This document shows, piece by piece, positions 4,191-27,424 of a stretch of 32,000 nt of DNA. How positions within the stretch are numbered: position 1 is the first letter of the stretch; every line of letters begins with the position of its first letter. The stretch covers positions 2,160,001-2,192,000 of the forward strand of contig NZ_CP047960.1 in assembly GCF_014280195.1 (NCBI RefSeq), given 5' to 3'. The translations under genes were made by a program, and so were the position numbers. Under the pieces are notes generated by a model that had not been told where the DNA came from, made no database searches, and worked only from the letters and a program-made list of their open reading frames with translations. This DNA is from Synechococcus sp. A15-24. Lineage in GTDB: Bacteria > Cyanobacteriota > Cyanobacteriia > PCC-6307 > Cyanobiaceae.

Positions 4191-4360
4191 GATTTAAAAA
4201 TAAATCGAAAACTAATATTAGATGAAATTTTCGCAGGATTCTTCAGTCCTTGTTGCACGGAGCACACAATGCTGTCTTACGCATTACAAGGTTCAATCCG
4301 TAAAAGTAGCCAGCAGCTTTACACGTTTATCTAACTCTAGTCATAGAAATTATTATGCAT

Positions 4361-4389
4361 AAAAAAACCCCTTGCTGATGCAAGGGGTT
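4361..4389 (-). terminator. Rho-independent terminator of the 4411..6132 gene
   Basis: The stem AACCCCTTGC (4366-4375) pairs with GCAAGGGGTT (4380-4389) around the loop TGAT. On the minus strand the hairpin is followed by a T-run (plus-strand A-run 4361-4367). Confidence 0.75.
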
Positions 4390-4410
4390 GAAGAGATTCG
4401 CTCTATTTGA

Positions 4411-13980: not shown

Positions 13981-14886
13981 ATGGTCTGGACCGTTGACGA
14001 CATCCCCTCCCAGGAGGGGAGAGTTGCGCTTGTCACAGGAGCGAACAGCGGTCTGGGCCTGGCCACCGCCCGCGCCATGAGCGCTCGCGGGGCGACGGTG
14101 ATCATGGCTTGCCGCTCCCGGCGCAAAGCCGAAACGGCACGGAAGCAGCTGCTGGAAGCGGGGCTCACCGGCCTGGATCTGCTGGAGCTTGACCTGGCGG
14201 ACCTCAACAGTGTGCAGCGTGCTGCAGCCGAGGTGAGTGATCGCTACGGCCACCTGGATCTGCTGTTCAACAACGCCGGGGTGATGGCCCCACCGCGTCA
14301 GCTGACCGTTCAGGGCCATGAGCTGCAACTGGGCGTGAACCACCTGGGCCATATGGCCCTCACCCTAAAACTGCTGCCGCTGATGCAGGGTCGCAACGAT
14401 GCCCGCGTGGTGACCGTGACCTCCGGCGCCCAGTACTTCGGACGCATTCGCTGGACTGACCCCAGCTGGGCACAGGGCTACGACCGCTACGCCGCCTACA
14501 GCCAGAGCAAGCTGGCCAATGTGATGTTCGCCCTGGAACTGGAGGCACGGCAGCAGAAGCAAGGCGGCGGCATCCGCTCTCTGGCAGCCCACCCCGGCCT
14601 GGCTCGTACGGATCTGCAGCCAACAGCGATCGCCAGTGGCGGCAACCGTCTGGAGGCTGTGGCATACCGCCTGATGGATCCCCTGTTCCAAAGCGCTGCC
14701 ATGGGCGCCTTACCTCAGCTGCATGCCGCTACAGCCGCGACAGCGCAGGGGGGAGAGCACTACGGCCCAGACCAACTGGGGGGAATGCGCGGCCACCCAA
14801 CCCGCTGCCGCATCGCTCCAGCCGCCCTCGACCGTGAGCAGCGTCAACGGCTCTGGCAACTCAGCGAACGGCTGATCAGTGCCTGA
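13981..14886 (+). CDS. Short-chain dehydrogenase/reductase (SDR)
   Basis: It has the cofactor motif VTGANSGLGLATA, the NNAG motif and the catalytic YSQSK (YxxxK). Confidence 0.9.
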   Translation: MVWTVDDIPSQEGRVALVTGANSGLGLATARAMSARGATVIMACRSRRKAETARKQLLEAGLTGLDLLELDLADLNSVQRAAAEVSDRYGHLDLLFNNAGVMAPPRQLTVQGHELQLGVNHLGHMALTLKLLPLMQGRNDARVVTVTSGAQYFGRIRWTDPSWAQGYDRYAAYSQSKLANVMFALELEARQQKQGGGIRSLAAHPGLARTDLQPTAIASGGNRLEAVAYRLMDPLFQSAAMGALPQLHAATAATAQGGEHYGPDQLGGMRGHPTRCRIAPAALDREQRQRLWQLSERLISA

Positions 14887-16859
14887 CCAGCCCACCGCCA
14901 TCGGGCGGTTGATTCCATACGTGATGGGGCGAGCCCGCCGTGGCGTTGTGGGATCGAGCCGTTACGCCCATCGGCTTCGGCAGGCCTTGCTGGAGGCAGC
15001 CAAGGATGCCGAGCACCGACCTCTGCTGGTCAGGGGGGAACCGGGACTGGAGAAAGACAACCTTGCTGCGCTGGTGCATTACGGCTCCGAGCGCCGTCGC
15101 CGGCTGCTTGTGCGCCTGGATGCTGGAGATCTCCAGGGCAATGGCCGACTGCTTTTGGATGACCTGCTGGACTCCTCCCTTTTGGTGAGCGGCATCGATC
15201 GCCTGGAACCGGCCGTGCAGCAACGCTTGATCTCCATGGCGCGGGGTGAATCACCACAGTTCACCGCCCGCGTTCTGTTCACCAGCGAAACCCATCTGTC
15301 CTGCCACGATGGGATTGCACAACTGATCAGAGTTCCACCCCTGCGGGTGCGCGGGGAGGACCTGGTGGGGGACTGGATTCGCTACATGGTCCGGCTGCAG
15401 AGCTCTGGTCTGGGGTGGGAACAGCCCCCCGCGGTGCCGGATGCGGTGGTCCGCAGGCTGCAGAACCATGACTTAGCCAACAACCTGCGCGAACTGGAGA
15501 CCCTGGTGGATCGAGCGCCCCGTCAGGCCCGGCAACAGTCGTCCGCTGGAGAACTGCCAACCATGCTTCCCGAGGCAGTGTTCTGGACGGGCAATCGGAA
15601 CCAAAAGGCCAGGTTTGATCTGTGGCGCTGGAAGCCAGAGCTGCGCCAGTGGATGCGGGCCCCCCAGCTCTGGAATGGACTGCTGTTCGGGTTGGTGAGC
15701 TGGTTGTTCGTTGCGGTGAATCTGGCGCTCTGGCTTGGGCCCCAGGCACGTGCCGACAACCCGATGCTGAAACTGTTCTGGGCCTGGTGGTGGCCCTTGA
15801 TCCTGATCAGCTACCCCCTGGTGGGTCGGCTCTGGTGTGCCATCTGTCCCTTCATGGTTTGGGGGCAGATCGCCCAGCGTTTGACCCCATGGCGCAAGCG
15901 GCTCTGGCCCCATGGCGACACCGATCGCTGGGCCTCAAACCTGCTCGCAGCAGGGTTTGCCTTGATCCTGATCTGGGAGGAGGTGTGGAATCTTGAAAAC
16001 ACCGCCTGGCTCAGCAGTTGCCTGCTGCTGCTGATCACAGCAGGGGCTGTGGTCGGATCGCTGCTGTTCGAAAAACGGTTTTGGTGCCGCTACCTCTGTC
16101 CCGTGGGAGGGATGAACGGCCTGTTCGCCAAACTTTCGATGCTGGAACTGAGGGCTGAAGCCGGCACCTGCGGTGGCAGCTGCAGCAGCTACGCCTGCTT
16201 CAAGGGAGGTCCAGCCCAAGGGAGAGGGGCTCGCCACGGAGGGCTGTCCATTGGGCACGCACCCGGCTCACCTCAGTGACAACCGCAATTGCGTTCTGTG
16301 CATGACCTGCACCCAAGCCTGTCCAAACCGATCGGTGCAACTGCGTCTGAGGCCCCCTGCCGCTGATGTGCAGAAAGACATGCGGAGCCCAGATGGCGAG
16401 CGGGGGCTGATCCTGGTGCTTGCTGGGGGAATCACACTGCATCACTGGGAAAAGCTGCTCAGCTGGTTGCCTTTGGCACCAGCGTCATTGCAGGAGGGTC
16501 CGCTCTTGCCACGGCTGAGTTTCGCCCTGCTTGCTCTTGCTCTCCCCTCTACAGCCGGGCTGTGGCTAAACCGACGTTGGTTTTTGGCAGCGCTGCCCCT
16601 GCTCTGGGCCCTGCTCCTCGCACGTCATCTTCCGATGGGAATGCTGGAAGCTGGCACCGTGTTGCCCAGCGGCTGGCCCCGTTGGTCGGCTGATTCCCAT
16701 GTGCTGGCGTTTTGTCAGACCCTGGTCATCAGCATCGGTTGGGCTGGCGCTGTGGTTTTGGCCCGACGGCTCTCAACCGCAAAGTTCTGGGGCTGGCTGA
16801 GCTGCAGCATGGTGCTGTTATCAATCAGCTGCGCTGGACGCTGGCTGGTGGCCTTCTGA
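14879..16859 (+). pseudogene. Sigma-54-activator-like (degenerate AAA+) domain fused to a polytopic 4Fe-4S-binding membrane domain; split by a 1-nt frameshift near 16205-16226
   Basis: ORF 14879..16279 has NtrC-like blocks: LVRGEPGLEKDNLAALVH in place of GESGTGKE, then IRVPPLRVRGEDL and NNLRELETLVDRA. It continues with TM segments carrying LWCAICPF and FWCRYLCPVGG. ORF 16173..16859 continues in the next frame with GEGLATEGCPLGTHP and the ferredoxin motif CVLCMTCTQACP plus more TM segments. Skipping one base around 16223 joins ..CFKGGPAQG to EGLATEGCP... The start may be GTG 14879 or ATG 14924. Confidence 0.7.
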
Positions 16860-18314: not shown

Positions 18315-18329
18315 GCCTCAGAAACTCGA

Positions 18330-18365
18330 CCGATGCGACGGGCAGCGCGACTTCCGTCGCATCGG
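18330..18365 (+). terminator. Strong hairpin downstream of hli (possible terminator, no U-tract)
   Basis: A perfect 12-bp stem pairs CCGATGCGACGG (18330-18341) with CCGTCGCATCGG (18354-18365) around a 12-nt loop. It starts 16 nt after the hli stop. It is followed by CGACAAAAAC, not a T-run. Confidence 0.35.
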
Positions 18366-18465
18366 CGACAAAAACAGGCTAAATTTTCGTAACGTTGACC
18401 CGGATCTTCCGGATGCAGTTCGTTCCAGGCCATGCAACGGGGGCCAGGACGCTGTGGAGACGCCC

Positions 18466-18642
18466 ATGTCCCCCCTCTCAATGATTCAAAAGCGCACCCA
18501 ACGCCAGCAACTTCTTGAAGGCGCTCGTCGCCAGATGGCCAAAGCCGAAGGGTGCTTCGACCTTGAAGTCAACAGCGCCAGGATTGCACCGGCACCGCTA
18601 TATGACCTCTCCTACCGAGCCATCAGCGCCAACTGGCTCTGA
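18466..18642 (+). CDS. Hypothetical small protein (58 aa)
   Basis: This uses the internal ATG of ORF 18235..18642 and begins MSPLSMIQKRTQRQQLLEG... The longer version would overlap hli. No motif is recognised. Confidence 0.3.
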   Translation: MSPLSMIQKRTQRQQLLEGARRQMAKAEGCFDLEVNSARIAPAPLYDLSYRAISANWL

Positions 18643-18746
18643 TTCAGCGCCAGGTCGTTTATTTCGCTGTGTTCAACGGTTATCAATTTCACAGCCCGAC
18701 ATCGTGCGCGCTGAGACGGTAAGAGCACCCTGAACACACCAGTCCC

Positions 18747-18965
18747 ATGATCAAACTCGGAGGACGCGTGGTGGAAACTCCAATGGGTTCCACCATCGAT
18801 TCCATTCGTGATGGCGGCTTCTGGGTTTGCGATCGGGACCGGAACTGTCGGGAAGTGTGTGGTCTCTGGGAGGCTGAAGAATTCCTGCGCGAGCGGGAGA
18901 GGGGATTTGATTACCCCTACGCCTCCCAGCTCCACGCCGTAGAGGATGTCCAGAGCAATCAGTAG
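18747..18965 (+). CDS. Hypothetical small protein (72 aa)
   Basis: The ORF is open and has non-shadow composition, including a Cys pair in WVCDRDRNCREVCG. No family is recognised. Confidence 0.4.
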   Translation: MIKLGGRVVETPMGSTIDSIRDGGFWVCDRDRNCREVCGLWEAEEFLRERERGFDYPYASQLHAVEDVQSNQ

Positions 18966-19015
18966 TTCCCATCAGGCGTTGTCTCCGCTTTGATGAGGTC
19001 ATTTGAGCTGTTTAG

Positions 19016-19147
19016 ATGACCCTTGGTCGCTTCTTGATCCTCTTTGCTGTGGGTGTCGTTGCTGCGCTAGTGCTGAAACTTACCTGGCTTAACTGGTTGC
19101 TGGGCTTAGCTGCGGGGTGGGTGGTTTTCAAACTCATCAAGGGTTGA
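19016..19147 (+). CDS. Hypothetical small hydrophobic peptide (43 aa, two predicted TM stretches)
   Basis: My own translation is MTLGRFLILFAVGVVAALVLKLTWLNWLLGLAAGWVVFKLIKG*. It is below the ORF-track length cutoff. Confidence 0.3.
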   Translation: MTLGRFLILFAVGVVAALVLKLTWLNWLLGLAAGWVVFKLIKG

Positions 19148-19252
19148 CGTCAAATCCAAAGGCGTTGAACTCCTGACATCAACCTCTCCGGTGTGAATGG
19201 TTACCCATGACCTTGGTCGCGATGCCTATCACCAGGCAAAGCCAACCGTCTG

Positions 19253-19549
19253 ATGATCACAACGACGACCCGTCTCCGACTTCAGAACATCTGCGATCGC
19301 ATCGCACAAGGCGAATCAGTCTCCTTAACCGAACGGGTTTACCTACAGAAATTTGCCGATCGAGACCGCAGCGTCCTCTCCTGGATGAACCGGGCTCAAC
19401 GCAGACAGCAACAAGGCGCTGTGACGGGGCTCGACAAACTGCTAATCGACATGGACCTCGGTAGTTGCGATCCAGGTGACATGCATCGCCGCAGTGATGA
19501 CCTCAGCGAGTGGTTCGGCAATGCTGATCCCTGGCTCCGCCGAGATTGA
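19253..19549 (+). CDS. Hypothetical protein (98 aa)
   Basis: The ORF is open and begins MITTTTRLRLQNICDRIAQGESVSLTERVYLQKFADRDRS... It resembles small conserved picocyanobacterial hypotheticals as far as I recall. No function is assigned. Confidence 0.45.
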   Translation: MITTTTRLRLQNICDRIAQGESVSLTERVYLQKFADRDRSVLSWMNRAQRRQQQGAVTGLDKLLIDMDLGSCDPGDMHRRSDDLSEWFGNADPWLRRD

Positions 19550-19567
19550 GGTGGATCTGACCAGCAA

Positions 19568-19831
19568 TCAATCAGCATTCATCCGTTGCTGATGACGGGG
19601 CAGGGCCCACTCAATAAAGGCCTCTTTCTTGTCACGGGAGCCTCGTCGAGCACAACCTGCCGCCGCAGACTCTCTGACGGCATCGCTGAACGCACCAGCT
19701 TGTTCAAGCTCTATGTACTCGCAATGGCATTGGGCTGTCGCAAGATCATTCATCAATTCTGCAACTTCACCCCACATTCTCATCTTTCGTTCCATGCATG
19801 AAGCGTGATAGCTGATGTAATCAGGCTGCAC
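19568..19831 (-). CDS. Hypothetical protein (87 aa or shorter)
   Basis: The ORF is convergent with 19253..19549. Internal Met codons (MERKMRMW..) are alternative starts. No motif is recognised. Confidence 0.35.
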   Translation of the reverse strand: MQPDYISYHASCMERKMRMWGEVAELMNDLATAQCHCEYIELEQAGAFSDAVRESAAAGCARRGSRDKKEAFIEWALPRHQQRMNAD

Positions 19832-20089
19832 GTCAGTTTGTCATTGTCGATCCGTCTGATCGATGCCAACTTGATCCAACCCTCCTCCATCAAAGGCAGC
19901 CGCCGAGGCACCCATCAGCAGAGCGATGCAGACTATCTAGGGCTTCCACATCAGAACAGCATTCAATTCAGAACAGATGCTTCTGCATAACAAACGACTG
20001 ACCAAGTTTTATCGAAGAACAACAACTGAGCACTCCACTCACCTGCGTTCATCAATCACTGAACGCATTGGCGATGGATCACCAATCGT

Positions 20090-20251
20090 CTAGCTCTCGT
20101 CGTTGATCAAACGAAGAGCGGCATTCAACACGGCTTGCTTCGCCTCATTGCGCTTCATCCCTTCACGTTCGAAGTGGCGAACAATGCGGGATAGGTCCCA
20201 CCACACAGCCGCTTCCACTTCATCCATTTTGTTCGCGACATGAAGTGACAT
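20090..20251 (-). CDS. Hypothetical small protein (53 aa)
   Basis: My own translation is MSLHVANKMDEVEAAVWWDLSRIVRHFEREGMKRNEAKQAVLNAALRLINDES*. It is below the ORF-track cutoff and lies just outside the distal att copy. Confidence 0.3.
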   Translation of the reverse strand: MSLHVANKMDEVEAAVWWDLSRIVRHFEREGMKRNEAKQAVLNAALRLINDES

Positions 20252-20296
20252 GGCCGGCAGGCGACTTCTCCACCTCTAGCGAACTACCGCAACGAA

Positions 20297-20349
20297 TGGG
20301 CGATGCTGGGATCGAACCAGCGACAATCTCCTTGTAAGGGAGGTGCTCT
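20297..20349 (-). repeat. Distal att copy: 53-nt duplicate of the 3' part of tRNA-Val (from the D-stem 3' strand to the discriminator base)
   Basis: It matches 27353-27405 at 51 of 53 positions in the same orientation. The two differences (20305 G vs 27361 A; 20321 C vs 27377 T) are the two partners of T-stem pair 49:65. Similarity stops abruptly on both sides. Confidence 0.9.
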
Positions 20350-20396
20350 TTTCTTCAGATTCACTGACACAACTGAGCTAAAGTAATCCTACTAAT

Positions 20397-20420
20397 TTTT
20401 TAGAGCAGTTTTTAGAGCAG
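20397..20420 (+). repeat. Perfect 2 x 12-bp tandem TTTTTAGAGCAG (candidate arm-type recombinase/Xis/regulator site)
   Basis: The sequence 20397-20408 is identical to 20409-20420. The pair lies 48 nt inside the distal att copy. The same core recurs at 22489-22512, 24778-24790 and 27221-27256. Confidence 0.8.
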
Positions 20421-20447
20421 AGCTGCCAAACTCACCGCCCTGTTGTC

Positions 20448-20633
20448 ATGAGCGTGTTGGATCAGTTCAGTGATGACCCAAGACCAATTCTTGAGGTCGC
20501 CTTAGAGCAAGCCACTCCAAACCGAATCAGCAAGGTCACTGTGCAGCGGTGCATCAGCAAGCTGTCCCCGCATTGGACTGATGAGCAGCTCCAACAAGTG
20601 GTGGAAATGTTCCAAGCTCACAGGCTTCTTTGA
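20448..20633 (+). CDS. Hypothetical protein (61 aa)
   Basis: This is the first ORF inside the element on the cargo arm. No motif is recognised. Confidence 0.4.
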   Translation: MSVLDQFSDDPRPILEVALEQATPNRISKVTVQRCISKLSPHWTDEQLQQVVEMFQAHRLL

Positions 20634-20683
20634 TCAAAGGATTTGATCCTTGTAACAATGGGGCAAGCTAGGAGTGCTTTAGA

Positions 20684-21541
20684 TTGAAACGGTTTTCTAT
20701 TGTTGCTGCCCTATGGGCTTTCGGTTGCCCTGTACTCGCACAGGTTGATCCTCAGGTAGCCGAGCAGTGCAAAGACGCCAGAGACTTTCTTGGTTGCGTA
20801 AAAGCTTTTTCTCAGCCAGCAAAAATAAATGATGAATTGTCAGCGCTCAGAGATGCAATGAAAAAAGTTGCGTCCAGGCTTGCATCAGGCACGAGCCTCA
20901 ATAATTCCTCGTCTACATTTCAGCCGGTAATTGATGCTCATGCCATAGTTCCTGCCGAGCAGCAAAATTCTTTGGCATACCAATCTGCTTCCATGGCAAT
21001 CGATTTATTCGACCTTACCCAGTCGGTCTGGCAGTCCAGGATTAGCAATACTGTATTAGCAATGGGGATGGGATCGGTGCCAGGCGTGACTCATTTATAT
21101 CATCAATGCGTGAGTTTCAAGAACCAAGTCGGCCGGTCATATGGCATAATTGGTAAAAGTATTCCCTGGAACTTTAGAGAAACGGGAATGTTTGGAGGCG
21201 GTTGCAATTTATCTGGCAACTCTCCAGAATCTCCTCTTTATAGGTATACGATTGGCATTTTAAAAGAAGGTGCTACAAATCCAAATGACATCAAAGAATA
21301 CTCAATGAAACTAAAGGAGGCTAAGAGACTGGCCTCGCTGGGCCCGTGGAATCGTTATCTAGAGAAAAATCCTGGGATGAAAGCATGGGCAATGGCTAAC
21401 CCTGGCTTAGCTGAGTCAAAGAAGAATGAATACATCAAAAAGAATGGAAGTGATACTGTGAATATGCCTGATTTGCCAGCAAATTTTCGATACTTAAGAG
21501 GAACCAAGGTGGAGGCGATGATCTCAGGCACAGGTTTCTAG
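20684..21541 (+). CDS. Secreted/periplasmic protein of unknown function (285 aa)
   Basis: A TTG start is preceded by GGAG about 10 nt upstream. The signal peptide is MKRFSIVAALWAFGCPVLAQ. The coding sequence is markedly AT-rich compared with everything else in the window. No domain is recognised. Confidence 0.7.
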   Translation: MKRFSIVAALWAFGCPVLAQVDPQVAEQCKDARDFLGCVKAFSQPAKINDELSALRDAMKKVASRLASGTSLNNSSSTFQPVIDAHAIVPAEQQNSLAYQSASMAIDLFDLTQSVWQSRISNTVLAMGMGSVPGVTHLYHQCVSFKNQVGRSYGIIGKSIPWNFRETGMFGGGCNLSGNSPESPLYRYTIGILKEGATNPNDIKEYSMKLKEAKRLASLGPWNRYLEKNPGMKAWAMANPGLAESKKNEYIKKNGSDTVNMPDLPANFRYLRGTKVEAMISGTGF

Positions 21542-21547
21542 GTCGCA

Positions 21548-21763
21548 ATGGCAATCACCACACGAGCACAACGCCAGCAACGCCAAAACGAGGCTCTTCA
21601 GCTGATCAGCAGTGCTAAACCGGCCACCAAACCGGCGGGTAAGGGGCCCCGGGGTAAATCCATTGCAGCGCAATGCATCTCAGCGATTTATGCCCTTAAA
21701 CCCCCCGGCCATGACCTGCCACTACGACAACTGAATCAACCTTTGAAGCAAAACGCTCTCTAG
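21548..21763 (+). CDS. Hypothetical protein sharing its first ~20 codons with the 22108 gene (truncated or mosaic paralogue)
   Basis: MAITTRAQRQQRQNEALQLI.. compares with MAITTRQQRVQRRNEALQLI.. at 22108. The nucleotide similarity starts exactly at the ATG and is lost after about 60 nt. Confidence 0.4.
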   Translation: MAITTRAQRQQRQNEALQLISSAKPATKPAGKGPRGKSIAAQCISAIYALKPPGHDLPLRQLNQPLKQNAL

Positions 21764-21944
21764 CGATTTCCATTCGTCTTATGTTTGTTTCTATTTCAAT
21801 TTCACGCGCCAATTGGAGTAGTTGCGCTTTACAAATCGCTTTGTCGCCAGCAGTTGGATGGATCATGAGACATGACAGAAAATTCATAGCTGAAAAGCTA
21901 AAAGCAATGCCTGCGGCTCTTTCAGAAGCGTCATTTACGTACAC
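21696..21944 (-). CDS. Hypothetical protein (82 aa or shorter)
   Basis: It is the only ORF covering the AT-rich stretch 21770-21950. Its 3' end overlaps 21548..21763, so at most one of the two is correct in the overlap. Confidence 0.25.
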   Translation of the reverse strand: MYVNDASERAAGIAFSFSAMNFLSCLMIHPTAGDKAICKAQLLQLAREIEIETNIRRMEIARERFASKVDSVVVVAGHGRGV

Positions 21945-22107
21945 ACGACCATGAAGCTAGGTAACGACAGTCATCACCAGACAAACGCCTCAAGCCACAC
22001 CAACGTCACCAGTGATGCTCCTCCAATCACTATCGACAACCACTGGTCACGAAACACGCGTGTCATCTCAGCAATGCAGCTGACCCAATAAATCGCCGCT
22101 GATCACC

Positions 22108-22488
22108 ATGGCAATCACCACCAGGCAGCAACGTGTTCAACGCCGTAACGAGGCTCTTCAGCTGATTGCTGATGGTGTGCCACCAACTGACGCAGCGACG
22201 CAATTGTCGTTGAAGTGGGGGTGCTCTCGCAGAACATCACTAAGGGACATAGAACTCGCCCAAAGTGAGCTTGCAACCGCCCTGGACTCATCAGAGTTGC
22301 GGAACATGGTGGGTTGGTTGGCGACGCAGTATCAACGCCTAGCCGCCAAAGCTGAAAGGGACGGCCAGTACGCAGCAGCCTGCGGATGCCTTAATTCCTT
22401 GAGGGTGATGTTGGTGCAGCCGCAACTGGATCGGCAATTTGAAGCGCACTTCCGTGGCCGCTTTACGCACCAAGTCCACAGGCGCTAA
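22108..22488 (+). CDS. Putative helix-turn-helix DNA-binding protein (126 aa)
   Basis: It has an HTH-like segment TDAATQLSLKWGCSRRTSLRDIELAQ followed by a helical tail. Its stop codon is immediately followed by the tandem motif pair at 22489-22512. Confidence 0.6.
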   Translation: MAITTRQQRVQRRNEALQLIADGVPPTDAATQLSLKWGCSRRTSLRDIELAQSELATALDSSELRNMVGWLATQYQRLAAKAERDGQYAAACGCLNSLRVMLVQPQLDRQFEAHFRGRFTHQVHRR

Positions 22489-22512
22489 TGCTCTAAAGAT
22501 TGCTCTAAAAAG
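22489..22512 (-). repeat. Tandem pair of the TTTAGAGCA motif in inverted orientation (TGCTCTAAAGAT TGCTCTAAAAAG)
   Basis: It was read directly from the sequence. It has the same 12-bp phasing as the pair at 20397-20420. Confidence 0.75.
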
Positions 22513-22789
22513 CGGAAAAGCCCACAACAACCGCAGTCACAGCTGGCATTTCAGAAGATTGACCACCTGCTGACGTAGCAGGTGCTCTTAAGGGAATGTA
22601 TCGAGTCCAGCAATCTTGAGACTCAGCCTGCCAGTGAGATCGGAGTGGAACTGGCACAGCGTCCTTGCGCCCTGGATAAGCCAGTAGGGCTTGGGAATGA
22701 CATTTTTGGGTCTCGGGGTAAGATGACCGCGAAATGTGGTGTTTGATTAAAGCCGCAAGGCTTGACTTCTATTTTCATTTCCACCTCTC

Positions 22790-23029
22790 ATGAAAACACT
22801 TCTCTTAATTTCTTCACTGTTAGTTGTACCTGCCGCGGCTAAAGCCGATTCGGTGAACTGTCGAACAATCGGCAACAGCACTTTTTGCAACGGGTATGGA
22901 AGCAATGGCAGCTCTACCTACCAGCAGCGATCTATTGGCAACTCTACTTTTTACAATGGCACAGACAGCTACGGGAATAGATACTCAGGGAGTTGTAGAA
23001 CAATCGGCAACAGCACTTTTTGCAACTGA
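22790..23029 (+). CDS. Small secreted Cys-bracketed triple-repeat peptide (79 aa)
   Basis: The signal peptide is MKTLLLISSLLVVPAAAKA. The mature part contains CRTIGNSTFCNG, RSIGNSTFYNG and CRTIGNSTFCN. The outer repeats are encoded by near-identical 33-nt segments (22858-22890 and 22994-23026). A strong terminator follows. Confidence 0.7.
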   Translation: MKTLLLISSLLVVPAAAKADSVNCRTIGNSTFCNGYGSNGSSTYQQRSIGNSTFYNGTDSYGNRYSGSCRTIGNSTFCN

Positions 23030-23051
23030 GCCTTCGGGCTCTTTTTTTTTT
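23028..23051 (+). terminator. Rho-independent terminator
   Basis: The hairpin is GAGCC ttcg GGCTC, followed by a run of 10 T (23042-23051). It overlaps the stop codon of the peptide gene. Confidence 0.85.
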
Positions 23052-23218
23052 GCTCAGCGCCCGTAATAACCACCCTGCGGTCGTCGGTTGTGCATCTTGA
23101 TGCACAATATCTTGCTCAGCTCACGAGCAGCGGCAACAGCGACTACAAAGCGATCAGATGACCTCCGGACGTGGACCCCATGCCGGATCGTCCTCACCAC
23201 CGATGTACGGAACTGTTG

Positions 23219-24229
23219 TTAGAGGGGGGGGTGCGAGACATGGGAAAAATCCCCAACGCCGTAGAGGTATTCAGGACGGCCACGCTTGCCGGTTCTGCGT
23301 TGGTGACGCTGTAGCTGACCTTGTTCAAACAGGTCAAAGCAGACCAGCCGTGCGTGTTCTGCATTGCCACCAAGAGCTTTGACCATCTCAGTGATGGACT
23401 GATAGCCGTGTTGCTCAACGTGCTGCAGAACCCTTTTGGCCAGGTTTTCTGACTCAACTGGCTTCTGTTGGTCTTGCTGCTCTGCAAGCCACCAGCTGTA
23501 AGTCTCGACATCGCGCTCAAGAACCCATGTGGTGCCTGGCTCGATATTCCGCTTGCCAAGGGCATGCAGTGAAAACTTGCCGTCATTGAGGCTTGTCAAA
23601 CCCCAGCCGTCTTGAACTGCAGCACTGATGGTTCCAATGCCAGAGATGTCGTCCCACTCAATTTCTGAGCGCTTACGCCTGATGCCATTTCCGTCTGGCT
23701 TGCGTTTATTGCAGTGAGCACTCATCAACATCGACACGCCGTTGTTGACCAGGCATTTGTTGAGTCGGTAAAGGACATCAACAATTTCACTGTCAGTTAT
23801 GCGCTGCCCTTCTGAGCACAGAACGGTGGTCAAGCTGTCGCAGCCAATGAAGCCGTACTCCTTTGACTGAATGGTCTCCAGGAGCTGTTCAAATGGAAAC
23901 GGCTCATCTAAGTAGATGACATCAAAGTTGCGTTTCAGTCCCTGACGACGGAACTTGCGTTCGCTGAACTTCTCAGGCTCATCACCTTGAATCAGCAGTG
24001 CCTTGGCCTGCTGTGTTTTAAAGGCACCCAGAAAGGGAGTGCCTTCTTGAACTGCCTCGCAGCAGTGGTTCATCAAGGTTGTTTTGCCAGTGCCCCGCTC
24101 TGCAGGGAACACAACAATGCCGCTGGCAGCGAACTGATGAACGCGCCAGTTTTTTCCTAGGTCCTGCACACCCCCTTTTTTTGAGTCATGGATTAAGTCC
24201 TTTAGTGGCCGGTAGTCGTATTCGCTCAT
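23219..24229 (-). CDS. RepA/AAA_25-type (RecA-fold) replicative helicase-like ATPase with C-terminal winged helix
   Basis: It has Walker A AERGTGKTT, Walker B-like FIGCDS and a SAHCNKRK segment matching the HHxxK-type motif of RepA-like helicases. The C-terminal wHTH-like region reads ITEMVKALGGNAEHARLVCFDLFEQGQL. I place the start at MSEYDY (24229), which overlaps the upstream stop as ATGA. Confidence 0.8.
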   Translation of the reverse strand: MSEYDYRPLKDLIHDSKKGGVQDLGKNWRVHQFAASGIVVFPAERGTGKTTLMNHCCEAVQEGTPFLGAFKTQQAKALLIQGDEPEKFSERKFRRQGLKRNFDVIYLDEPFPFEQLLETIQSKEYGFIGCDSLTTVLCSEGQRITDSEIVDVLYRLNKCLVNNGVSMLMSAHCNKRKPDGNGIRRKRSEIEWDDISGIGTISAAVQDGWGLTSLNDGKFSLHALGKRNIEPGTTWVLERDVETYSWWLAEQQDQQKPVESENLAKRVLQHVEQHGYQSITEMVKALGGNAEHARLVCFDLFEQGQLQRHQRRTGKRGRPEYLYGVGDFSHVSHPPL

Positions 24230-24933
24230 GACAGCCACCCGTGGAGTTCGGGACAGCCGAGATCGTTTTTGCGGAAGCAATCAACGTCACGGCGTTGGTA
24301 CCGCAAGGTCTTGAGCTTGTGCTGCACAGCGATGACAAACCGCCGGTATTTGGGGTTGTGCCTGGCGGCATCAACCAAAAGCGGCAACAACTGGTCGCCC
24401 TTGTATTCCGCCCGGTAAATGGCCTTGAAGTAGTGGCGCAGCTCATCCGGGCTGCACAGTTCAAATTCAGGACATGCCATTGCCTCGCGCCATTCAGCAA
24501 TGAACTGAGGCAGCAGCCTTCGCCACCTTGTACTGACGTTGCGTTTTGCCGTAGCCCGATGCTTGCGTTGACCAGCAGGCAGCCATGGCTTGTACAGGTT
24601 GCAAGCGCCCGTGTGGCCGCAGTTGGTGCGATGCAAGAACCAGGTTTGACCACGCCACCGGAATTGATCCTGCAGCGGGCTGTTGTGGCAGAACAGTGTG
24701 TTGTCGTTGAAGCGGCAGTCGCCGTCTTTAACGCGACCACAAGCGCATGGGTTCTTACGCCCTGATCTGGTCAGCTTCTGCTCTAAAAAATGACCTAGGC
24801 GCGGTTTTATAGATCTAGATCTACTTGTCGCACCAGTCGATTTGGGCGCACTGACACCCTGCTCCGCGAGTAGGTTTTCACTTAGCCTTGAGGTTGTACG
24901 GGCCTCATGGCTGCTCAATTTTTGAGTGGCCAT
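24226..24933 (-). CDS. Zn-ribbon protein, possible primase-type zinc finger/replication initiator
   Basis: The segment PCACGRVKDGDCRFNDNTLFCHN resembles the primase-helicase zinc ribbon (CxxCG..dRFrFdD...C). A second Cys/His cluster reads HRTNCGHTGAC. The N-terminus is basic. No TOPRIM or AEP motif was seen. Confidence 0.65.
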   Translation of the reverse strand: MATQKLSSHEARTTSRLSENLLAEQGVSAPKSTGATSRSRSIKPRLGHFLEQKLTRSGRKNPCACGRVKDGDCRFNDNTLFCHNSPLQDQFRWRGQTWFLHRTNCGHTGACNLYKPWLPAGQRKHRATAKRNVSTRWRRLLPQFIAEWREAMACPEFELCSPDELRHYFKAIYRAEYKGDQLLPLLVDAARHNPKYRRFVIAVQHKLKTLRYQRRDVDCFRKNDLGCPELHGWLS

Positions 24934-24937
24934 TTTT

Positions 24938-25252
24938 TTATTCCTCGTTTGCGATTTGGATCAACAAGTCGGCGTGACAGGGCTTGTCTTCTGAGCACCA
25001 ACAGGCAAGGTCTTTACCCTTCAGCTCTTGTCGAACCTGCTCCCAGTAGTCATCAGCAGCAGGCGAAAGAAGCCAGAACCTGAATTTGTCCACCGCCAGC
25101 TCGTAATAGGTCTCCTCAGGAACACCAGGATCACGATCCTTAGCTGGCGTCACTGGGTATGGATTGCCCCAGCGAGTAGGACGACCGACATAAACGGTGT
25201 TCTTAGGCATCCGCCAACCAGCGGTGCGTTTGCGTTGTATACGTTTAGGCAT
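24938..25252 (-). CDS. DUF4326-family protein
   Basis: It has the family-typical blocks YVGRPTRWGNPY and KGKDLACWCSEDKPCHADLL. Confidence 0.8.
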   Translation of the reverse strand: MPKRIQRKRTAGWRMPKNTVYVGRPTRWGNPYPVTPAKDRDPGVPEETYYELAVDKFRFWLLSPAADDYWEQVRQELKGKDLACWCSEDKPCHADLLIQIANEE

Positions 25253-25479
25253 CAGACCAGCTCCTTGATGAGCTGGTCTGCCTTGCGTTGGATGCGACCA
25301 CGCTTGTGCAGTTCTTTCTGGATACGGTCAACGTCCCAGCGGATGCTGGCGTTAGAACTGGCGCCCAAGAAATAGTGTTCCCCGCCGACCAAGAAGCCGC
25401 CATGGGAGTCTCTGAGGCGTTTTAAATAGCTTTGACTGACTTGGAGATGCTCTGCGGCATCTGGGGTCCGTAACAACAC
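25252..25479 (-). CDS. Excisionase-family (HTH_17/AlpA/MerR-like) DNA-binding protein
   Basis: The pattern (M)LLRTPDAAEHLQVSQSYLKRLRD .. IRWDVDRIQKEL matches the 'LLTvkEaAeyLgVS..tiyrl.. ..r...dl..fl' excisionase HTH pattern. It has a GTG start and overlaps the upstream ORF by 58 nt. Confidence 0.7.
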   Translation of the reverse strand: MLLRTPDAAEHLQVSQSYLKRLRDSHGGFLVGGEHYFLGASSNASIRWDVDRIQKELHKRGRIQRKADQLIKELV

Positions 25480-25712
25480 GGGAGACCTTCCTGTTTAAGG
25501 CCCATGCACTGCGCAATCAGCCGGATGTATGGCTTGTAGTTGCTGAAATCAAAGACAGCATCACCGTGCTGTTCCTTGAGCCTCAACAGGTTTTGGCCAA
25601 TCTGTTCAACGTCTAAACCACCTGCGGGGTAACGGAAGTCAACATCGTGACCGTTAACCAGCATGGCCAGCTTTCCCTGAGCTTTTTTCAGTTTCGACGC
25701 AGTCCGACTCAT
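25422..25712 (-). CDS. Hypothetical protein (96 aa), first gene of the replication/excision operon
   Basis: The ORF is open with an ATG start, downstream of a 231-bp intergenic region. No motif is recognised. Confidence 0.45.
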   Translation of the reverse strand: MSRTASKLKKAQGKLAMLVNGHDVDFRYPAGGLDVEQIGQNLLRLKEQHGDAVFDFSNYKPYIRLIAQCMGLKQEGLPCCYGPQMPQSISKSVKAI

Positions 25713-25943
25713 TTACAGAGCAAAGGATGAACGTTTGAAGTTCCACCCCGTTAGACGCAACGTAGAAGCGAATCGGTCCAGCCTTGGGAAAAGCTGTTCA
25801 CGGGGTCACAGGATCGCTGTGACGTTGTCCGTGAGATGTTGATGAGAACCTAGCGAGCACTGTCTGCGGCTGTCAACCACAGCAGGCTGCAGCAAAGTGG
25901 CGCACCACGTTATTAACCAAGGCATACCACTCTTCCATCTTCG

Positions 25944-27209
25944 TTATTCAACAGCGACCAAACCTTCGGAGTACCGCTCAACTGCCGCTTGCAGACTAGA
26001 TTCATCAACCCACCTGCCATATGTTGACATGTGCACGGTCGGGGTATGACCCATAAGCGCACTTGCTTGTCGAACGTGCAAAGGATTAGTTGAGCAAACA
26101 TGACAGCGCCATGCCCACGAATGCCTCAGCGAATAAATGCTGAGACCTGGATTACTTCGCACCAAGTTTTGCCAGGGTGCGTATCGGCGAAGCAACTGCC
26201 CGTAGGCATGACCAACCTGCTTAAAGCTTTGCTTCTCCTCAACCTTGGAAATTTCGTTCAGAACCGGCTGGGGCAGTTTCACCAGGCCAGAGGCATAAAG
26301 CTGCAGAGCCTTCATTCCTTCACCTGCACGGCCTTCGATATCCAGTGGCAGGCACAGCCGTGGTGGCTTTGGCTTCTGCGCCAGTGAAGCCGTGTTCCTT
26401 TTGACGGCACCGGCATAAAGCCGACCTTCCTTGACGCTCAGCAGAGCCAACTCTGCGGGCCTGAGCCCATAAAGCGATATCAAGGCTGTCGCTAAACGCA
26501 AATCATGACGGCCATCTGCCTCCATCTGATCCAACAGGGCAGCAAGGTCTGGCGACTTGATTGGTGGGGTTAAACGCGCCTGCGTACTAGTAGCGGAAAC
26601 ACCGATCAGTTCAGCTGTGAATGACTTCTCCGGCGGCAGCCAACACTGATAGGCACCAGCCCGATCAACGGCGTAACGCAAGAAAGCCACGACGCTTTGA
26701 ACATTGCGCCTACGGCCTTCACCACCAGATTCCATGTCGGCAAAAAAGAGTTGCGCGTAACGCTTCAGCAAGGCCCTTGAATCGCGTGGCTTGGGCTTTT
26801 GATCCATGCACACCAACAAACGATTCAGACGCGTTCTGAGGTCAGACAGCGTTGAGCTGCGAAGACCTTGCTTGCCCTTCAGGTACTCCTGCACAACAGC
26901 CGACCAACCTTGTTCAGCAACGCCGCTGTGACTGGAGGGAACTGCAAGTTCTGCGGTGTCTAGACGAACAGCCTCAGCAAGGCTGAGGTTGCGGCTTTCC
27001 ATCAGCTGCCGAACGCGTGTGACGGCGTTCAAGATCTGCACTGAGTTGGTGGCCTTCCACTCAATCGGCAGCACCTTGGCGCTCTTGGTGCCGTCTTCAA
27101 AAACGCGAGTCAGCTTGGTTTTGCCGCTTTGAGCAATGACGTTCCAGCCGAAGCCGTGGTTGTCCTTGATCTGACGCCGAAGCGTTTTTTCCCATTGCTG
27201 GGCGGGCAT
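25944..27209 (-). CDS. int: Tyrosine recombinase (phage-integrase family)
   Basis: Its catalytic signature includes GLRPAELALL (Arg I) and LRHSWAWR (HxxR). It also includes LMGHT and STYGRW (Tyr nucleophile). It lies 143 nt from the intact tRNA-Val on the same strand. Confidence 0.9.
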   Translation of the reverse strand: MPAQQWEKTLRRQIKDNHGFGWNVIAQSGKTKLTRVFEDGTKSAKVLPIEWKATNSVQILNAVTRVRQLMESRNLSLAEAVRLDTAELAVPSSHSGVAEQGWSAVVQEYLKGKQGLRSSTLSDLRTRLNRLLVCMDQKPKPRDSRALLKRYAQLFFADMESGGEGRRRNVQSVVAFLRYAVDRAGAYQCWLPPEKSFTAELIGVSATSTQARLTPPIKSPDLAALLDQMEADGRHDLRLATALISLYGLRPAELALLSVKEGRLYAGAVKRNTASLAQKPKPPRLCLPLDIEGRAGEGMKALQLYASGLVKLPQPVLNEISKVEEKQSFKQVGHAYGQLLRRYAPWQNLVRSNPGLSIYSLRHSWAWRCHVCSTNPLHVRQASALMGHTPTVHMSTYGRWVDESSLQAAVERYSEGLVAVE

Positions 27210-27220
27210 GGAAGCGGGGC

Positions 27221-27256
27221 CTGCTCTAAGCCGTTCTAGAGCAGTTTTTAGAGCAA
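27221..27256. repeat. Cluster of three TAGAGCA-core motifs between int and the tRNA (one inverted, two direct)
   Basis: The copies are CTGCTCTAAG (27221-27230, inverted), TTCTAGAGCAG (27234-27244) and TTTTTAGAGCAA (27245-27256). The first two form the palindrome CTGCTCTA-n8-TAGAGCAG. Confidence 0.75.
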
Positions 27257-27352
27257 AACAGCTCTAGCAAGCCGCGGCCAGCTGTAGCCAGACAACAAAG
27301 AAGCGGCCTTACGACCGCTCAGAAACTAGTATGAGACTGGGCTTTTGGAGAG

Positions 27353-27424
27353 TGGGCGATACTGGGATCGAACCAGTGACAATCTCCTTGTAAGGGAGGT
27401 GCTCTACCGCTGAGCTAATCGCCC
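27353..27424 (-). tRNA. tRNA-Val (anticodon UAC), CCA not encoded
   Basis: The minus strand reads GGGCGAT TA GCTC AGCGGTA GAGC A CCTCC CTTACAA GGAGA TTGTC ACTGG TTCGATC CCAGT ATCGCCC A. This folds as a canonical cloverleaf with TAC in the anticodon loop CTTACAA. Confidence 0.93.

Follow-up and report, generated by a model that had tools for sequence, protein, structure and literature searches.

Tycheposons, known from Prochlorococcus (Hackl et al., bioRxiv 10.1101/2020.12.28.424599), combine an inward-facing tyrosine integrase beside a tRNA gene with a second, partial copy of the tRNA 3′ part, a Xis gene and a small replication module near the integrase, a cargo arm on the opposite side, and accretion of island DNA distal to the tRNA. 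Vesicles or borrowed capsids have been proposed in the tycheposon literature as the cell-to-cell vehicle. The same architecture recurs in a ~7-kb element that the marine cyanobacterium Synechococcus sp. A15-24 carries in its tRNA-Val(UAC) gene and that we analyzed within a 32,000-nt window (contig NZ_CP047960.1, positions 2,160,001 to 2,192,000; window numbering is used throughout). One arm of the element carries genes for the integrase (int), a Xis-like HTH protein, DUF4326, a Zn-ribbon protein, and an AAA_25 helicase; the other carries cargo. Every element ORF is open, the arm sites are intact, and the ORF set is as described in a first-pass annotation of the sequence. The likeness to tycheposons proposed there is borne out by members of the same integrase family at tRNA-Ala(GGC) and tRNA-Arg(TCT), including low-GC marine elements with VapE and capsid genes.

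Judging from sequence comparison, the element quite likely belongs, as an intact element of the cargo type, to the picocyanobacterial tycheposon family and entered tRNA-Val(UAC) by site-specific recombination. This assignment is based on the tRNA targets and architecture that it has in common with tycheposons and on its low-GC relatives. The kind of element is already known; the novelty is the tRNA-Val target, which is unreported for tycheposons.

Attachment sites and boundaries

The intact tRNA-Val(UAC) gene, identified with ARAGORN and Rfam, occupies 27352–27424 on the minus strand (start at 27352 or 27353) and constitutes attL, with its 3′ 54 nt lying in a core at 27350–27405. The attR core, a 56-nt partial copy of the tRNA 3′ part, is located at 20294–20349 on the same strand. 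The two cores form a direct repeat identical at 53 of 56 positions, and apart from these two the window has no copy of the tRNA 3′ part (none is expected in shuffled sequences). The tRNA and bracketing copy reported in the first-pass annotation are both present, but the repeat spans 56 nt from 20294 rather than 53 nt from 20297. Together they enclose 7,056 bp. As that annotation had also noted, this ~7.0-kb region is AT-richer than its surroundings (GC content of 0.45 to 0.55 versus 0.61 to 0.66 in the flanks).

The drop in GC content begins at ~18.5 kb, to the left of the element. The stretch that separates the element from the HLIP gene (18317–20293), which contains small ORFs and a glutamine-II riboswitch, is an older clade-specific island outside the mobile unit. 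It is kept at 90 to 94% identity in RS9915, L170, L176, L177, and L179 and is missing from other Synechococcus species, where synteny stops at 18316 and restarts at 27350. Its left edge carries no tRNA fragment. The tRNA-Val site itself is, in other species, either empty or occupied by different inserts of 1 to 6 kb.

Four forms of the attachment site were recovered: attL and attR in the window, attB in L170, and attP in L180 and L181. L170 is a close wild relative (flanks 95 to 96% identical) with an empty site. A single intact tRNA-Val there connects the window's 20349 side with its 27350 side, so that the DNA to the left of 20294 runs straight into the tRNA, as had been predicted for an empty site. 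The contigs L180 and L181, obtained in two metagenome sequencing runs, are identical over 6,167 bp and belong to the same element lineage. They supply the expected circular junction, with the order P arm, partial tRNA without its 5′ half, P′ arm, and integrase, the two arms in L180 being connected via a single core; attP-like junctions and circular assemblies can also be obtained from tandem insertions. The P-arm/core junction was absent from JGI metagenomes in an exact-match scan.

A compensatory base pair in the T stem distinguishes the four forms. It is G:C, the host type, in attB and attR and A:T, the element type, in attP and attL; the attR variant is that of the empty-site tRNA of L170. 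This sorting is as site-specific recombination predicts and is consistent with a crossover located 5′ of the T arm.

A sister element in RS9915 occupies the same site and has the same backbone, with unrelated cargo and no DUF4326. Nucleotide identity between the two is 93.4% for int, 94.4% for repA, 91.6% for xis, and 86.6% for the Zn-ribbon gene, compared to 91.5 to 97% for flanking core genes. Since the backbone has diverged to about the same extent as the core flanks, long vertical residence with cargo turnover is possible. The element might then be a resident, effectively fixed island that entered the common ancestor of A15-24 and RS9915, was inherited vertically, exchanged its cargo arm by homologous recombination, and does not move as a unit, an explanation also favored by the fact that attB and attP come from relatives and not from A15-24. 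We consider it unlikely, because a wild relative that is just as close has the site empty, two runs contain an attP junction of this lineage, and all ORFs and arm sites are intact. Moreover, attL in the window has the attP-type T stem while RS9915 has the host type, which indicates separate integration events. Returning to an element that arrived by site-specific recombination, comparison of the four forms shows, at the level of sequence, integration by recombination of attP, carrying the tRNA 3′ copy, with the chromosomal tRNA. It places the crossover 5′ of the T arm, within the region of the anticodon arm. By the same comparison, the 3′ half of the working tRNA is now element-derived, and the original 3′ half has been moved 7 kb away.

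Integrase, arm repeats, and the integrase family

The integrase gene (25944–27209, minus strand) reads inward from the tRNA and encodes a divergent tyrosine recombinase of 421 aa that matches PHROG_1 (8.7e-12). The protein itself is below every Pfam threshold and has no PDB match, even by profile. PF00589 is matched by 14 of 20 of its relatives (best value, 2e-5), and R250, K270, R362, H388, and Y397 are invariant. The integrase and helicase calls of the first-pass annotation thus hold in profile searches, the former through PHROGs and family-level PF00589 and the latter through AAA_25.

The P arm (20350–20426) contains two direct TTAGAGCA repeats with a 12-bp period (20400–20407 and 20412–20419), which are kept in RS9915, L179, and the L180 attP. 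In the P′ arm (27210–27349), TTAGAGCA-type sites are located at 27222–27229 (minus strand), 27237–27243 (plus strand, 7 of 8), and 27248–27255 (plus strand), and a hairpin terminator for the tRNA is found at 27301–27320. All eight occurrences of TTAGAGCA lie within the element (0.42 expected); outside the arms, the motif is present at two internal sites, 22489–22508 and 24779. Arm repeats are 8 to 9 bp long and differ from lineage to lineage, the two arms of an element sharing one motif. This motif changes along with the integrase N terminus, which is 93% identical between elements sharing the motif and ~40% identical between elements with different motifs. Xis co-varies with the repeat as well (89% versus 48 to 56%), so co-variation does not single out the integrase as the binder. 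We infer that the integrase binds the core and, through its conserved N terminus, the TTAGAGCA repeats on both sides of it.

The gene for the excisionase-like small HTH protein (xis; 25252–25479, minus strand) gives two weak matches, HTH_17 (0.0027) and phrog_66 (0.013), and is kept at the same position in all family members examined, at 40 to 89% identity. Its start is overlapped by o96 (25422–25712, minus strand), a conserved 96-aa ORF with no function assigned that is 76% identical in L082; the 58-nt overlap recurs in L180. The integrase and the Xis-like protein would together excise a 7.06-kb circle and restore tRNA-Val.

The integrase family mostly targets tRNA-Ala(GGC), sometimes tRNA-Arg(TCT) or tRNA-Val. 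According to ARAGORN, ~45 of 60 integrase loci lie immediately 3′ of a tRNA, mostly Ala(GGC) but also Val(UAC) and Arg(TCT), and several further loci have a partial tRNA-Ala copy only. Ala-type elements are 7.5 to 9 kb long and flanked by 45- to 52-nt repeats. The metagenome contigs L136 and L143 have terminal overlaps of 123 and 141 bp, which point to circles of 7.9 and 7.3 kb, respectively; both contain attP and encode a DUF3987 helicase in addition to int and xis. Such circular contigs of 7 to 8 kb, and the distant relationship of the RepA-like ATPase to AAA ATPases of cyanobacterial plasmids, would suit an integrative plasmid, i.e., a small RepA-type circular replicon that is integrated part of the time and mainly extrachromosomal. 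We regard this as quite improbable: no partition, relaxase, or copy-control genes were recognized in the element, and the ~45 loci adjoining a full tRNA represent the integrated form. The gap between this explanation and a tycheposon is largely one of wording.

Replication module, accessory gene, and cargo

The repA-like gene (23219–24229, minus strand) encodes a RecA-fold ATPase/helicase (AAA_25, 1.4e-10) with a C-terminal winged HTH of the Lrs14/Sta1 type (6e-5). Its likely start is the ATG at 24229, from which it overlaps the Zn-ribbon gene by 4 nt (ATGA) and encodes 336 aa, as in RefSeq. The protein is 93% identical to its RS9915 counterpart; the L180 variant has a weak DnaB_C match (4.9e-5, below the Pfam cut-off). 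More distantly related are the AAA_25 portions of large proteins from phage S-CBS4 and from cyanobacterial plasmids. The translationally coupled upstream gene (24226–24933, minus strand) encodes Zn235, a 235-aa protein with a Zn ribbon and a three-helix bundle. Zn235 has no profile-library match, and its AF2 model (pLDDT of 82, deep alignment) has no structural match. Residues C63, C73, C82, H83, C105, H107, and C111 are invariant and C65 nearly so. The Zn-ribbon part resembles the N termini of D5_N, DUF5906, Toprim, DUF3987, and PolA proteins, and homologues occur fused to primase and helicase domains. Zn235 is a putative replication accessory protein or initiator without a catalytic primase domain. 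Searches of the element revealed neither a primase domain nor an origin or partition function, and the helicase module at this position differs in other family members. The coupled pair may maintain or amplify the circle, with the winged HTH of the RepA-like protein recognizing an origin, possibly at 22489–22595, and the host supplying priming.

DUF4326 (24938–25252, minus strand; PF14216, 1.2e-23; phrog_464, 1e-32) had been counted as part of the replication module. This placement is rejected, since the gene sits in a variable slot that is empty in L086 and L087 and holds a 66-aa ORF in RS9915 and L180, and it is missing in the three closest relatives. It is described as a phage-type gene (PMC9503650), for which processing of ADP-ribose-derived signals has been proposed in the literature, and would here be a phage-type accessory gene. 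Its phage character is one of three observations that would fit a PICI-like satellite, which would rely on a helper cyanophage to be induced and packaged and would interfere with that phage; the others are the PICI-like int-xis-replication layout and a major capsid protein gene in relatives of the same integrase family. The low-GC marine elements L166 to L168 combine int, a VapE-like helicase, and Phage_capsid, and VapE and capsid are hallmark types in the tycheposon supplement (Hackl et al., bioRxiv 10.1101/2020.12.28.424599). A satellite is improbable, given that Pfam, PHROGs, and PADLOC revealed no terS, capsid, portal, or interference gene in the element, that 2.9 million IMG/VR contigs contained no integrase relative or att junction, that 7 kb is below typical satellite size, and that Hackl et al. 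found no cargo-type elements in viral fractions. The earlier label "satellite-like" is not supported for this element. The tRNA-adjacent integrase, the Xis-like gene, and DUF4326 could also be what is left of a decayed prophage, yet no remnants of virion, lysis, or packaging genes were detected with Pfam and PHROGs, all ORFs are open, and the compact architecture recurs in dozens of loci as well as in circles of equal size, making decay a very remote explanation.

On the opposite (plus) strand, the tycheposon-like element carries c61 (20448–20633; 61 aa), which has no family matches and no function assigned; in L180, a related ORF of 65 aa is found at this position. The next gene, c285 (20684–21541), encodes a cargo protein of 285 aa, predicted to be secreted from the signal-peptide-like N terminus of its translation. 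Its cluster has no other member and is known from A15-24 alone; its N-terminal leader and the motif VDPxVxxxCKDxxDxxGCV are common to a 232-aa protein of L166 (E = 2e-10). The first 30 codons of c71 (21548–21763) duplicate the 5′ end of c126 (direct repeat 21543–21606 versus 22103–22166, 78%; BLASTP identity of 67% over 30 aa). Thus, c71 is probably a recombination scar, and the duplication suggests cargo exchange by recombination, as expected of a fixed island. The c126 gene itself (22108–22488) belongs to the conserved backbone. Its 126-aa HTH-like product (weak HTH_23 match) is 38% identical to a 127-aa protein of the RS9915 element, the gene has 86.5% nucleotide identity in L180, and it is a candidate element regulator.

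A conserved non-coding patch (22489–22595), which begins with an inverted TTAGAGCA pair (22489–22508), is 79% identical to RS9915 L001 13939–14045, located directly 3′ of repA, and 86% identical in L180. It is a candidate cis element, either an ori or a regulatory site. The adjoining segment 22596–23186 has no counterpart in RS9915 and contains the cargo gene c79 (22790–23029), whose small product is predicted to be secreted from a signal peptide read in its translation and has three IGNSTF(C/Y)N repeats and no family matches. The arms converge on an intrinsic terminator (23028–23051, plus strand; stem GAGCCTTCGGGCTC at 23028–23041, then T10), followed by a perfect 9+2+9 palindrome, TTGTGCATC-TT-GATGCACAA (23088–23107); both had been pointed out before and are there. 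The palindrome is not conserved in RS9915 and is therefore not part of the backbone. Overall, this arm would represent exchangeable cargo, made up of small secreted proteins, plus an HTH regulator.

Comparison with described systems

The element shares with PICIs and SaPI-type satellites the order int, xis, regulator, and replication genes. SaPI Rep, like the RepA-like protein of A15-24, is a helicase with a C-terminal DNA binding domain. In contrast to these satellites, the A15-24 element is smaller and has no packaging or capsid-remodeling genes, no sign of a helper phage, and no relatives on the viral contigs of IMG/VR. As in lambda-type integration, the core, here tRNA-derived, is flanked on each side by an arm with paired short direct repeats, and these co-vary with the integrase N terminus; unlike in lambda, the arm sites are putative, being defined by sequence, the motif is also found at 22489–22508 and 24779, and Xis co-varies too.

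The Ala(GGC) and Arg(TCT) targets of its integrase family are shared with Prochlorococcus tycheposons (Hackl et al., bioRxiv 10.1101/2020.12.28.424599), and the VapE/MCP, DUF3987, or RHH genes of its relatives fit the published hallmark classes. The A15-24 element differs in its Synechococcus host, in its tRNA-Val(UAC) target, which is outside the seven published sites and has no YR_V group, and in its 56-nt repeat, compared to ~40 nt. It also differs in pairing a Zn-ribbon-only protein with an AAA_25 helicase, with no recognizable primase, and in carrying small secreted proteins without an assigned role where tycheposons carry nutrient-acquisition operons. The tRNA-Phe(GAA) insertions of marine Synechococcus (Grébert et al. 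2022, PMC8995045) are similar in host, in forming a tRNA-seeded variable region, and in their tyrosine recombinases. They use another tRNA, have the recombinase at the distal end, and are often fragmentary, whereas the A15-24 element is compact, complete, and bounded, with both attB and attP recovered.

Boundaries of the element and recombination at tRNA-Val

An intact tRNA-Val(UAC) gene occupies positions 27352–27424 on the minus strand (ARAGORN, Rfam). Its 3′ part belongs to a 56-nt direct repeat, 20294–20349 versus 27350–27405, with 53 of 56 positions identical; the 20294–20349 copy is the only second copy of the tRNA-Val 3′ part within the window. GC content is 0.45 to 0.55 inside the element compared to 0.61 to 0.66 outside. 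The first-pass annotation had described a tRNA-Val and a copy of its 3′ part bracketing AT-richer DNA, and the repeat and the GC contrast confirm this; ORF, Pfam, PHROG, and NCBIfam results recovered the gene content it had listed. On the minus strand, the integrase gene (int; 25944–27209) is the first from tRNA-Val and is followed, all on the same strand, by genes for o96 (a 96-aa ORF), the excisionase-like HTH protein Xis, a DUF4326 protein, Zn235 (a 235-aa Zn-ribbon protein), and RepA. The plus strand carries the cargo-arm ORFs c61, c285, c71, c126, and c79, named for their lengths in amino acids. A terminator (23028–23051) and a perfect palindrome (23088–23107) lie where the two arms meet. 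The palindrome was considered as an origin and rejected for its lack of conservation in the sister element of the cultured strain RS9915.

The insertion site was surveyed in one genome per species, located with the flanking MazG protein. The order HLIP gene, tRNA-Val, DUF2227, MazG is kept across marine Synechococcus, and the distance from the HLIP gene to tRNA-Val ranges from ~0.4 to 6.4 kb among the surveyed species. RS9915 carries its sister element at the same tRNA-Val, with core flanks 91.5 to 97% identical to the window. The int, xis, Zn-ribbon, and repA genes are 87 to 94% identical in nucleotide sequence between the two elements; the RS9915 element lacks DUF4326, and its cargo arm is wholly unrelated to that of A15-24.

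An empty tRNA-Val site had been predicted in a relative. Looking up contigs that encode the exact HLIP protein of the window yielded L170, a 21-kb wild contig whose flanks are 95 to 96% identical to the window. Here, the predicted arrangement was found: a single intact tRNA-Val connects the sequence left of 20349 directly with the sequence right of 27350. The reciprocal form was present in L180 and L181, contigs from two sequencing runs that are identical over 6167 bp and whose integrase belongs to the 90% cluster of the window integrase. In these contigs, the P′ arm upstream of the integrase (27210–27349 in the window) is joined via one partial tRNA-Val to the P arm (20350–20426) and the distal element end; the partial tRNA has no 5′ half and received no ARAGORN call.

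An alignment of six att sequences gave the pattern expected for site-specific recombination. The attB consists of the tRNA 5′ half, core, and host flank; attP consists of P arm, core, and P′ arm; and attL and attR are the two reciprocal attB/attP hybrids. A compensatory T-stem pair (two substitutions) is G:C in attB (L170) and in the window attR and A:T in attP (L180) and in the window attL. Because the pair sorts in this way among the att forms, the crossover lies 5′ of the T arm, within GCACCTCCCTTACAAGGAGATTGTC (the anticodon arm). Judged by this marker, the 3′ half of the functional tRNA-Val of A15-24 is derived from the element. The RS9915 copy has the G:C pair at both ends and so stems from a different attP allele or event.

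The attP-type junction could also stem from tandem insertions; in both cases, the integrase would have to be active in natural populations. Across the contigs and genomes compared, as distinct from A15-24 cultures, the distribution is patchy: the site is empty in L170, the attP form is present in L180 and L181, the cargo differs in RS9915 and also in the contig L179, and two relatives, L136 and L143, are circular. By extension, the element would also excise in A15-24 itself. The att junction was not found in an IMG/VR scan, nor was the exact 23-nt P-arm/core pattern in JGI metagenomes. Contigs L171–L175, L178, and many of L086–L165 break at most ~150 bp past the HLIP gene or 50 to 400 bp upstream of the integrase. 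We would expect such breakpoints if the island varies within populations.

Other variable DNA is present in the window. The 2 kb left of the element (18317–20293) are common to the A15-24/RS9915 lineage only and, because they bear no att scar, represent older island material. Inside this stretch, just downstream of the HLIP gene, is a glutamine-II riboswitch aptamer (RF01704; 18390–18449, plus strand; 50 bits versus a gathering score of 33), after which small ORFs follow. A ~2-kb presence/absence polymorphism at 14869–16841, absent in RS9915 and L176 and present in L170–L175, encodes a 647- to 658-aa protein with a weak Fer4_5 match between an adh_short gene and a FUR gene. A second low-GC patch (1950–6132, minus strand; GC 0.49 to 0.52) codes for a 746-aa protein with an RTX-like Gly/Asp-rich C terminus and a 573-aa protein, both large and apparently secreted, and looks like another small island.

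The integrase family, its tRNA targets, and arm repeats

The window integrase matches the PHROG_1 integrase profile at 8.7e-12; it has no Pfam match and no PDB match, either as a single sequence or as a profile. PF00589 matches 14 of 20 relatives, weakly (best, 2e-5), and the ~420-aa family largely escapes this model. Residues R250, K270, Y359-x-x-R362, H388, and Y397 are invariant in the 20 relatives. The earlier integrase call is thus upheld, although the window protein itself lacks a Pfam match: catalytic residues, PHROG_1, and the PF00589 matches of relatives identify a tyrosine recombinase.

Relatives are 43 to 76% identical. Of the 60 metagenome loci scanned, ~45 have the integrase directly 3′ of a tRNA; the same position is seen in the genomes of WH8101 and CB0101 and in one marine single-contig genome. 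The target is mostly tRNA-Ala(GGC), with Val(UAC) in L086 and L107–L109 and Arg(TCT) in L114. Ala-type elements measure 7.5 to 9 kb, have ends marked by 45- to 52-nt repeats, and keep the same gene order of int, small ORFs including xis, a Zn-ribbon or other unknown protein, and a helicase. Two freshwater loci, L145 and L149, have a layout opposite to that of the window: the integrase lies ~5 kb from tRNA-Ala at the distal end, reading toward the tRNA, and a partial tRNA copy adjoins it.

The ends of the L136 and L143 relatives overlap by 123 and 141 bp, which makes these contigs circular assemblies of 7.9 and 7.3 kb. These circles contain attP, int, xis, a 358-aa protein that is primase-like by motif alone, a DUF3987 helicase (6.7e-30), and an RHH protein. 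Low-GC marine members, whose GC of 0.39 to 0.42 fits Prochlorococcus, combine int with a VapE-like helicase and Phage_capsid (MCP), and one low-GC element, L166, has an attP-type junction too. A link of the integrase family to Prochlorococcus would rest on this GC content and gene content. The IMG/VR scan revealed no relative of the window integrase.

In a neighbor-joining tree (no bootstrap), the window Val-type integrase is sister to marine Ala-type integrases (74% identity) and far from the freshwater Val-type integrases, to which it is only 51% identical. This position suggests repeated tRNA retargeting within the family. On the basis of neighbor-joining placement and identities, Val(UAC) specificity may have arisen at least three times, and Arg(TCT) specificity once, from Ala(GGC)-targeting ancestors.

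The short arm repeat of the window element, TTAGAGCA, has eight copies in the window, all within the element, compared to 0.42 expected. A direct pair with a 12-bp period lies in the P arm (20400–20419), two exact copies and one 7/8 copy lie in the P′ arm (27222–27255), an inverted pair is at 22489–22508, and single copies are at 20502 and 24779. The repeat also occurs in both arms of the RS9915 element and of the Ala-type L082. Other elements have other arm motifs: TTTGGCGCA in WH8101, TTTGGTGCC in CB0101, TTCTGCGCA in the L136/L143 circles, and TTCTGCGCTA in L166. Integrase residues 1–45 are 93% identical between motif-sharing elements and ~40% identical otherwise, and the greatest divergence between Val and Ala types falls in the central residues 90–210. 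The pattern may mean that an N-terminal arm-site module stays constant while the central core-binding region diverges on retargeting. We read the TTAGAGCA repeats as arm-type integrase sites; their assignment to the integrase is one that we infer, since Xis co-varies as well.

Putative replication module, accessory gene, and cargo

RepA is a stand-alone AAA_25 (RecA/DnaB-like) ATPase with a C-terminal wHTH. The AAA_25 match (1.4e-10) bears out the first-pass description of a RepA-like helicase without a recognizable primase, and a catalytic primase domain is absent from the element's replication module. The L180 RepA variant has a weak DnaB_C match (4.9e-5, below the Pfam cutoff); distant relatives are AAA_25 portions of large proteins of Synechococcus phage S-CBS4 and cyanobacterial plasmids. 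An ATGA overlap couples the Zn235 gene to repA. Close relatives of Zn235 are few (25 proteins), and a profile search collected 115 representatives, mostly of 190 to 240 aa. The Zn-ribbon matches N termini of proteins with D5_N/DUF5906, Toprim, DUF3987, or PolA domains. An AF2 model of Zn235 built with a deep alignment (pLDDT of 82) consists of a beta-rich Zn-ribbon (55–117) and a three-helix bundle (137–223) and has no structural match in PDB or BFVD. PDB sequence searches with RepA and with a Zn235 profile gave nothing useful.

The only conserved noncoding patch outside the arms, 22489–22595, contains the inverted TTAGAGCA pair, lies directly 3′ of repA in RS9915, and is a candidate origin. 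From its domains, the positional equivalence with other helicase modules of the family, and the circular contigs, the element is predicted to self-replicate.

Several proteins bear some likeness to this module. S-CBS4 gp082 (L184, 3026–5014), from a Synechococcus siphovirus, is a 662-aa protein with a weak N-terminal Zn-ribbon and AAA_25. When the Zn235 family was compared to the gp082 N terminus by hhalign, the CxxC motif alone was aligned, at a probability of 6%; that Zn235 and RepA might be a split form of a gp082-like Zn ribbon–AAA_25 fusion is a weak proposition. In the CB0101 element (L085, 12127–14545), the Zn235/RepA position is taken by two proteins of 271 and 536 aa with no Pfam match. 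The former has a C-terminal CPICGR...C Zn-ribbon and an N-terminal FDFDG motif, and together they may constitute a primase-type version of the module. Prochlorococcus MIT0604 encodes a "putative zinc finger protein," MIT0604_00161, two genes from the integrase MIT0604_00163, and mitomycin C strongly induces both (log2FC of 7.2 and 8.5; bioRxiv 10.1101/2020.12.28.424599, supplementary tables). Judged by its description, as opposed to its sequence, MIT0604_00161 may be a Zn235 counterpart.

The DUF4326 gene (Pfam match at 1.2e-23) lies between xis and the Zn-ribbon gene. The same slot is empty in L086 and L087 and holds a 66-aa ORF in RS9915 and L180; in the WH8101 element, DUF4326 is instead placed after the helicase. 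A part in the replication module was ruled out, as the three closest relatives lack the gene and the WH8101 element has it at another position. DUF4326 belongs to the rhodanese-phosphatase superfamily, with predicted processing of ADP-ribose–derived phosphates in virus-host conflicts (Iyer et al., PMC9503650). The variable slot, the WH8101 position, and this prediction therefore mark DUF4326 as an accessory gene, possibly one for counter-defense.

The cargo arm is exchangeable, as the RS9915 comparison demonstrates, and its genes have no family or PHROG matches. PADLOC, run on all element proteins, gave one weak match (RepA to mad8, E = 0.0024) and none that is meaningful. Both c285 and c79 have seemingly secreted products without a family match; in a 15-billion-protein collection, c285 is a singleton. 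Its signal peptide and VDPxVxxxCKDxxDxxGCV motif (20684–20840) recur in a 232-aa protein (L166, 70–768, minus strand; BLASTP E = 2e-10) at the cargo end of the low-GC marine element with an integrase of the same family; the C-terminal part of that protein is unrelated to c285. The c79 product has three (R)(T/S)IGNSTF(C/Y)N peptide repeats (22850–23026) after the signal peptide, and no homolog was found. c126 encodes a conserved HTH-like protein. c71 and c126 share a 64-nt direct repeat at their 5′ ends (21543–21606 versus 22103–22166, 78%), and c71 resembles a truncated copy of the c126 regulator gene start. This duplication is a probable recombination joint for swapping cargo cassettes between elements. 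The LexA-box consensus RGTACNNNDGTWCB occurs nowhere in the window, and a promoter scan was uninformative (1 site versus 3.9 expected).

Significance and relation to known mobile elements

Prochlorococcus, in which tycheposons were defined, is hard to manipulate. The present element offers a small, complete example in A15-24 and RS9915, both cultured Synechococcus strains, with a shared backbone and different cargo. Natural attB, attP, attL, and attR sequences are all at hand, and the T-stem marker records the element-derived tRNA half. This opens direct tests of excision, replication, binding to the arm sites, and transfer by vesicles or phages, and the element is valuable mainly as a tractable model, fully delimited and available in cultured strains. 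Two leads on how such elements select and switch islands come from the family: the arm repeats, which differ between lineages and co-vary with the integrase N terminus, and the apparent repeated switches among tRNA-Ala, tRNA-Val, and tRNA-Arg. A wider reading joins two claims, that the integrase family is a natural tRNA-retargeting series and that Zn235 and the AAA_25-wHTH helicase are an undescribed, primase-less two-protein replication initiator; we regard the combination as tentative and somewhat more doubtful than probable. Retargeting, if true, would show how tycheposon integrases gain new island specificity.

The first-pass annotation had also called the element satellite-like. No terS, capsid, or cpm/ppi-like packaging or capsid-hijacking genes were found in it with Pfam, PHROGs, and NCBIfam, and IMG/VR contained neither an integrase relative nor the att junction, so a PICI or satellite nature is unsupported for the window copy. 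In the same three collections, none of the element ORFs had domains of the relaxase, oriT, or type IV secretion kind that ICEs and IMEs carry.

The tycheposon-like architecture that had been proposed, in contrast, is substantiated. The element is bounded and shows tRNA integration with a partial 3′ duplication (the 56-nt repeat and the four-way att alignment); tRNA, int, o96, xis, DUF4326, Zn235, and repA share one strand in the tycheposon module order; and excision, integration, and patchy occurrence among close relatives are indicated by comparative evidence. From the hallmark set of xis, SF3/SF4 helicases, primases, RHH, and regulators, AAA_25 resembles the hel_IRVE-DnaB class in kind, and the Xis-like HTH is weak. 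Tycheposon cargo serves niche adaptation or phage interference; the window cargo arm is exchangeable and lacks family, PHROG, or meaningful PADLOC matches. As for the tycheposon-specific tyrosine recombinase lineage, to which the integrase may belong, members of the integrase family sit at tRNA-Ala(GGC), tRNA-Arg(TCT), and tRNA-Val and include the low-GC marine elements with VapE and MCP. Elements of the family thereby match published tycheposon features, namely tRNA-Ala(ggc) and tRNA-Arg(tct) targets, the hel_VirE, hel_DnaB, and D5 helicase classes, RHH, and MCP. Hackl et al. listed seven Prochlorococcus target genes (tRNA-Pro, -Ser, -Ala, -Thr, -Arg, -Met, or tmRNA), and tRNA-Val(UAC) is outside this list; the list describes Prochlorococcus and is not in the formal tycheposon definition. 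On these comparisons, we regard it as a cargo-type integrative element of the tycheposon kind in Synechococcus, intact, bounded, and recently mobile. What is new is tRNA-Val(UAC), a site unreported for tycheposons, and the host Synechococcus; nothing in current understanding is overturned, and a known element class is extended to a new host and site.
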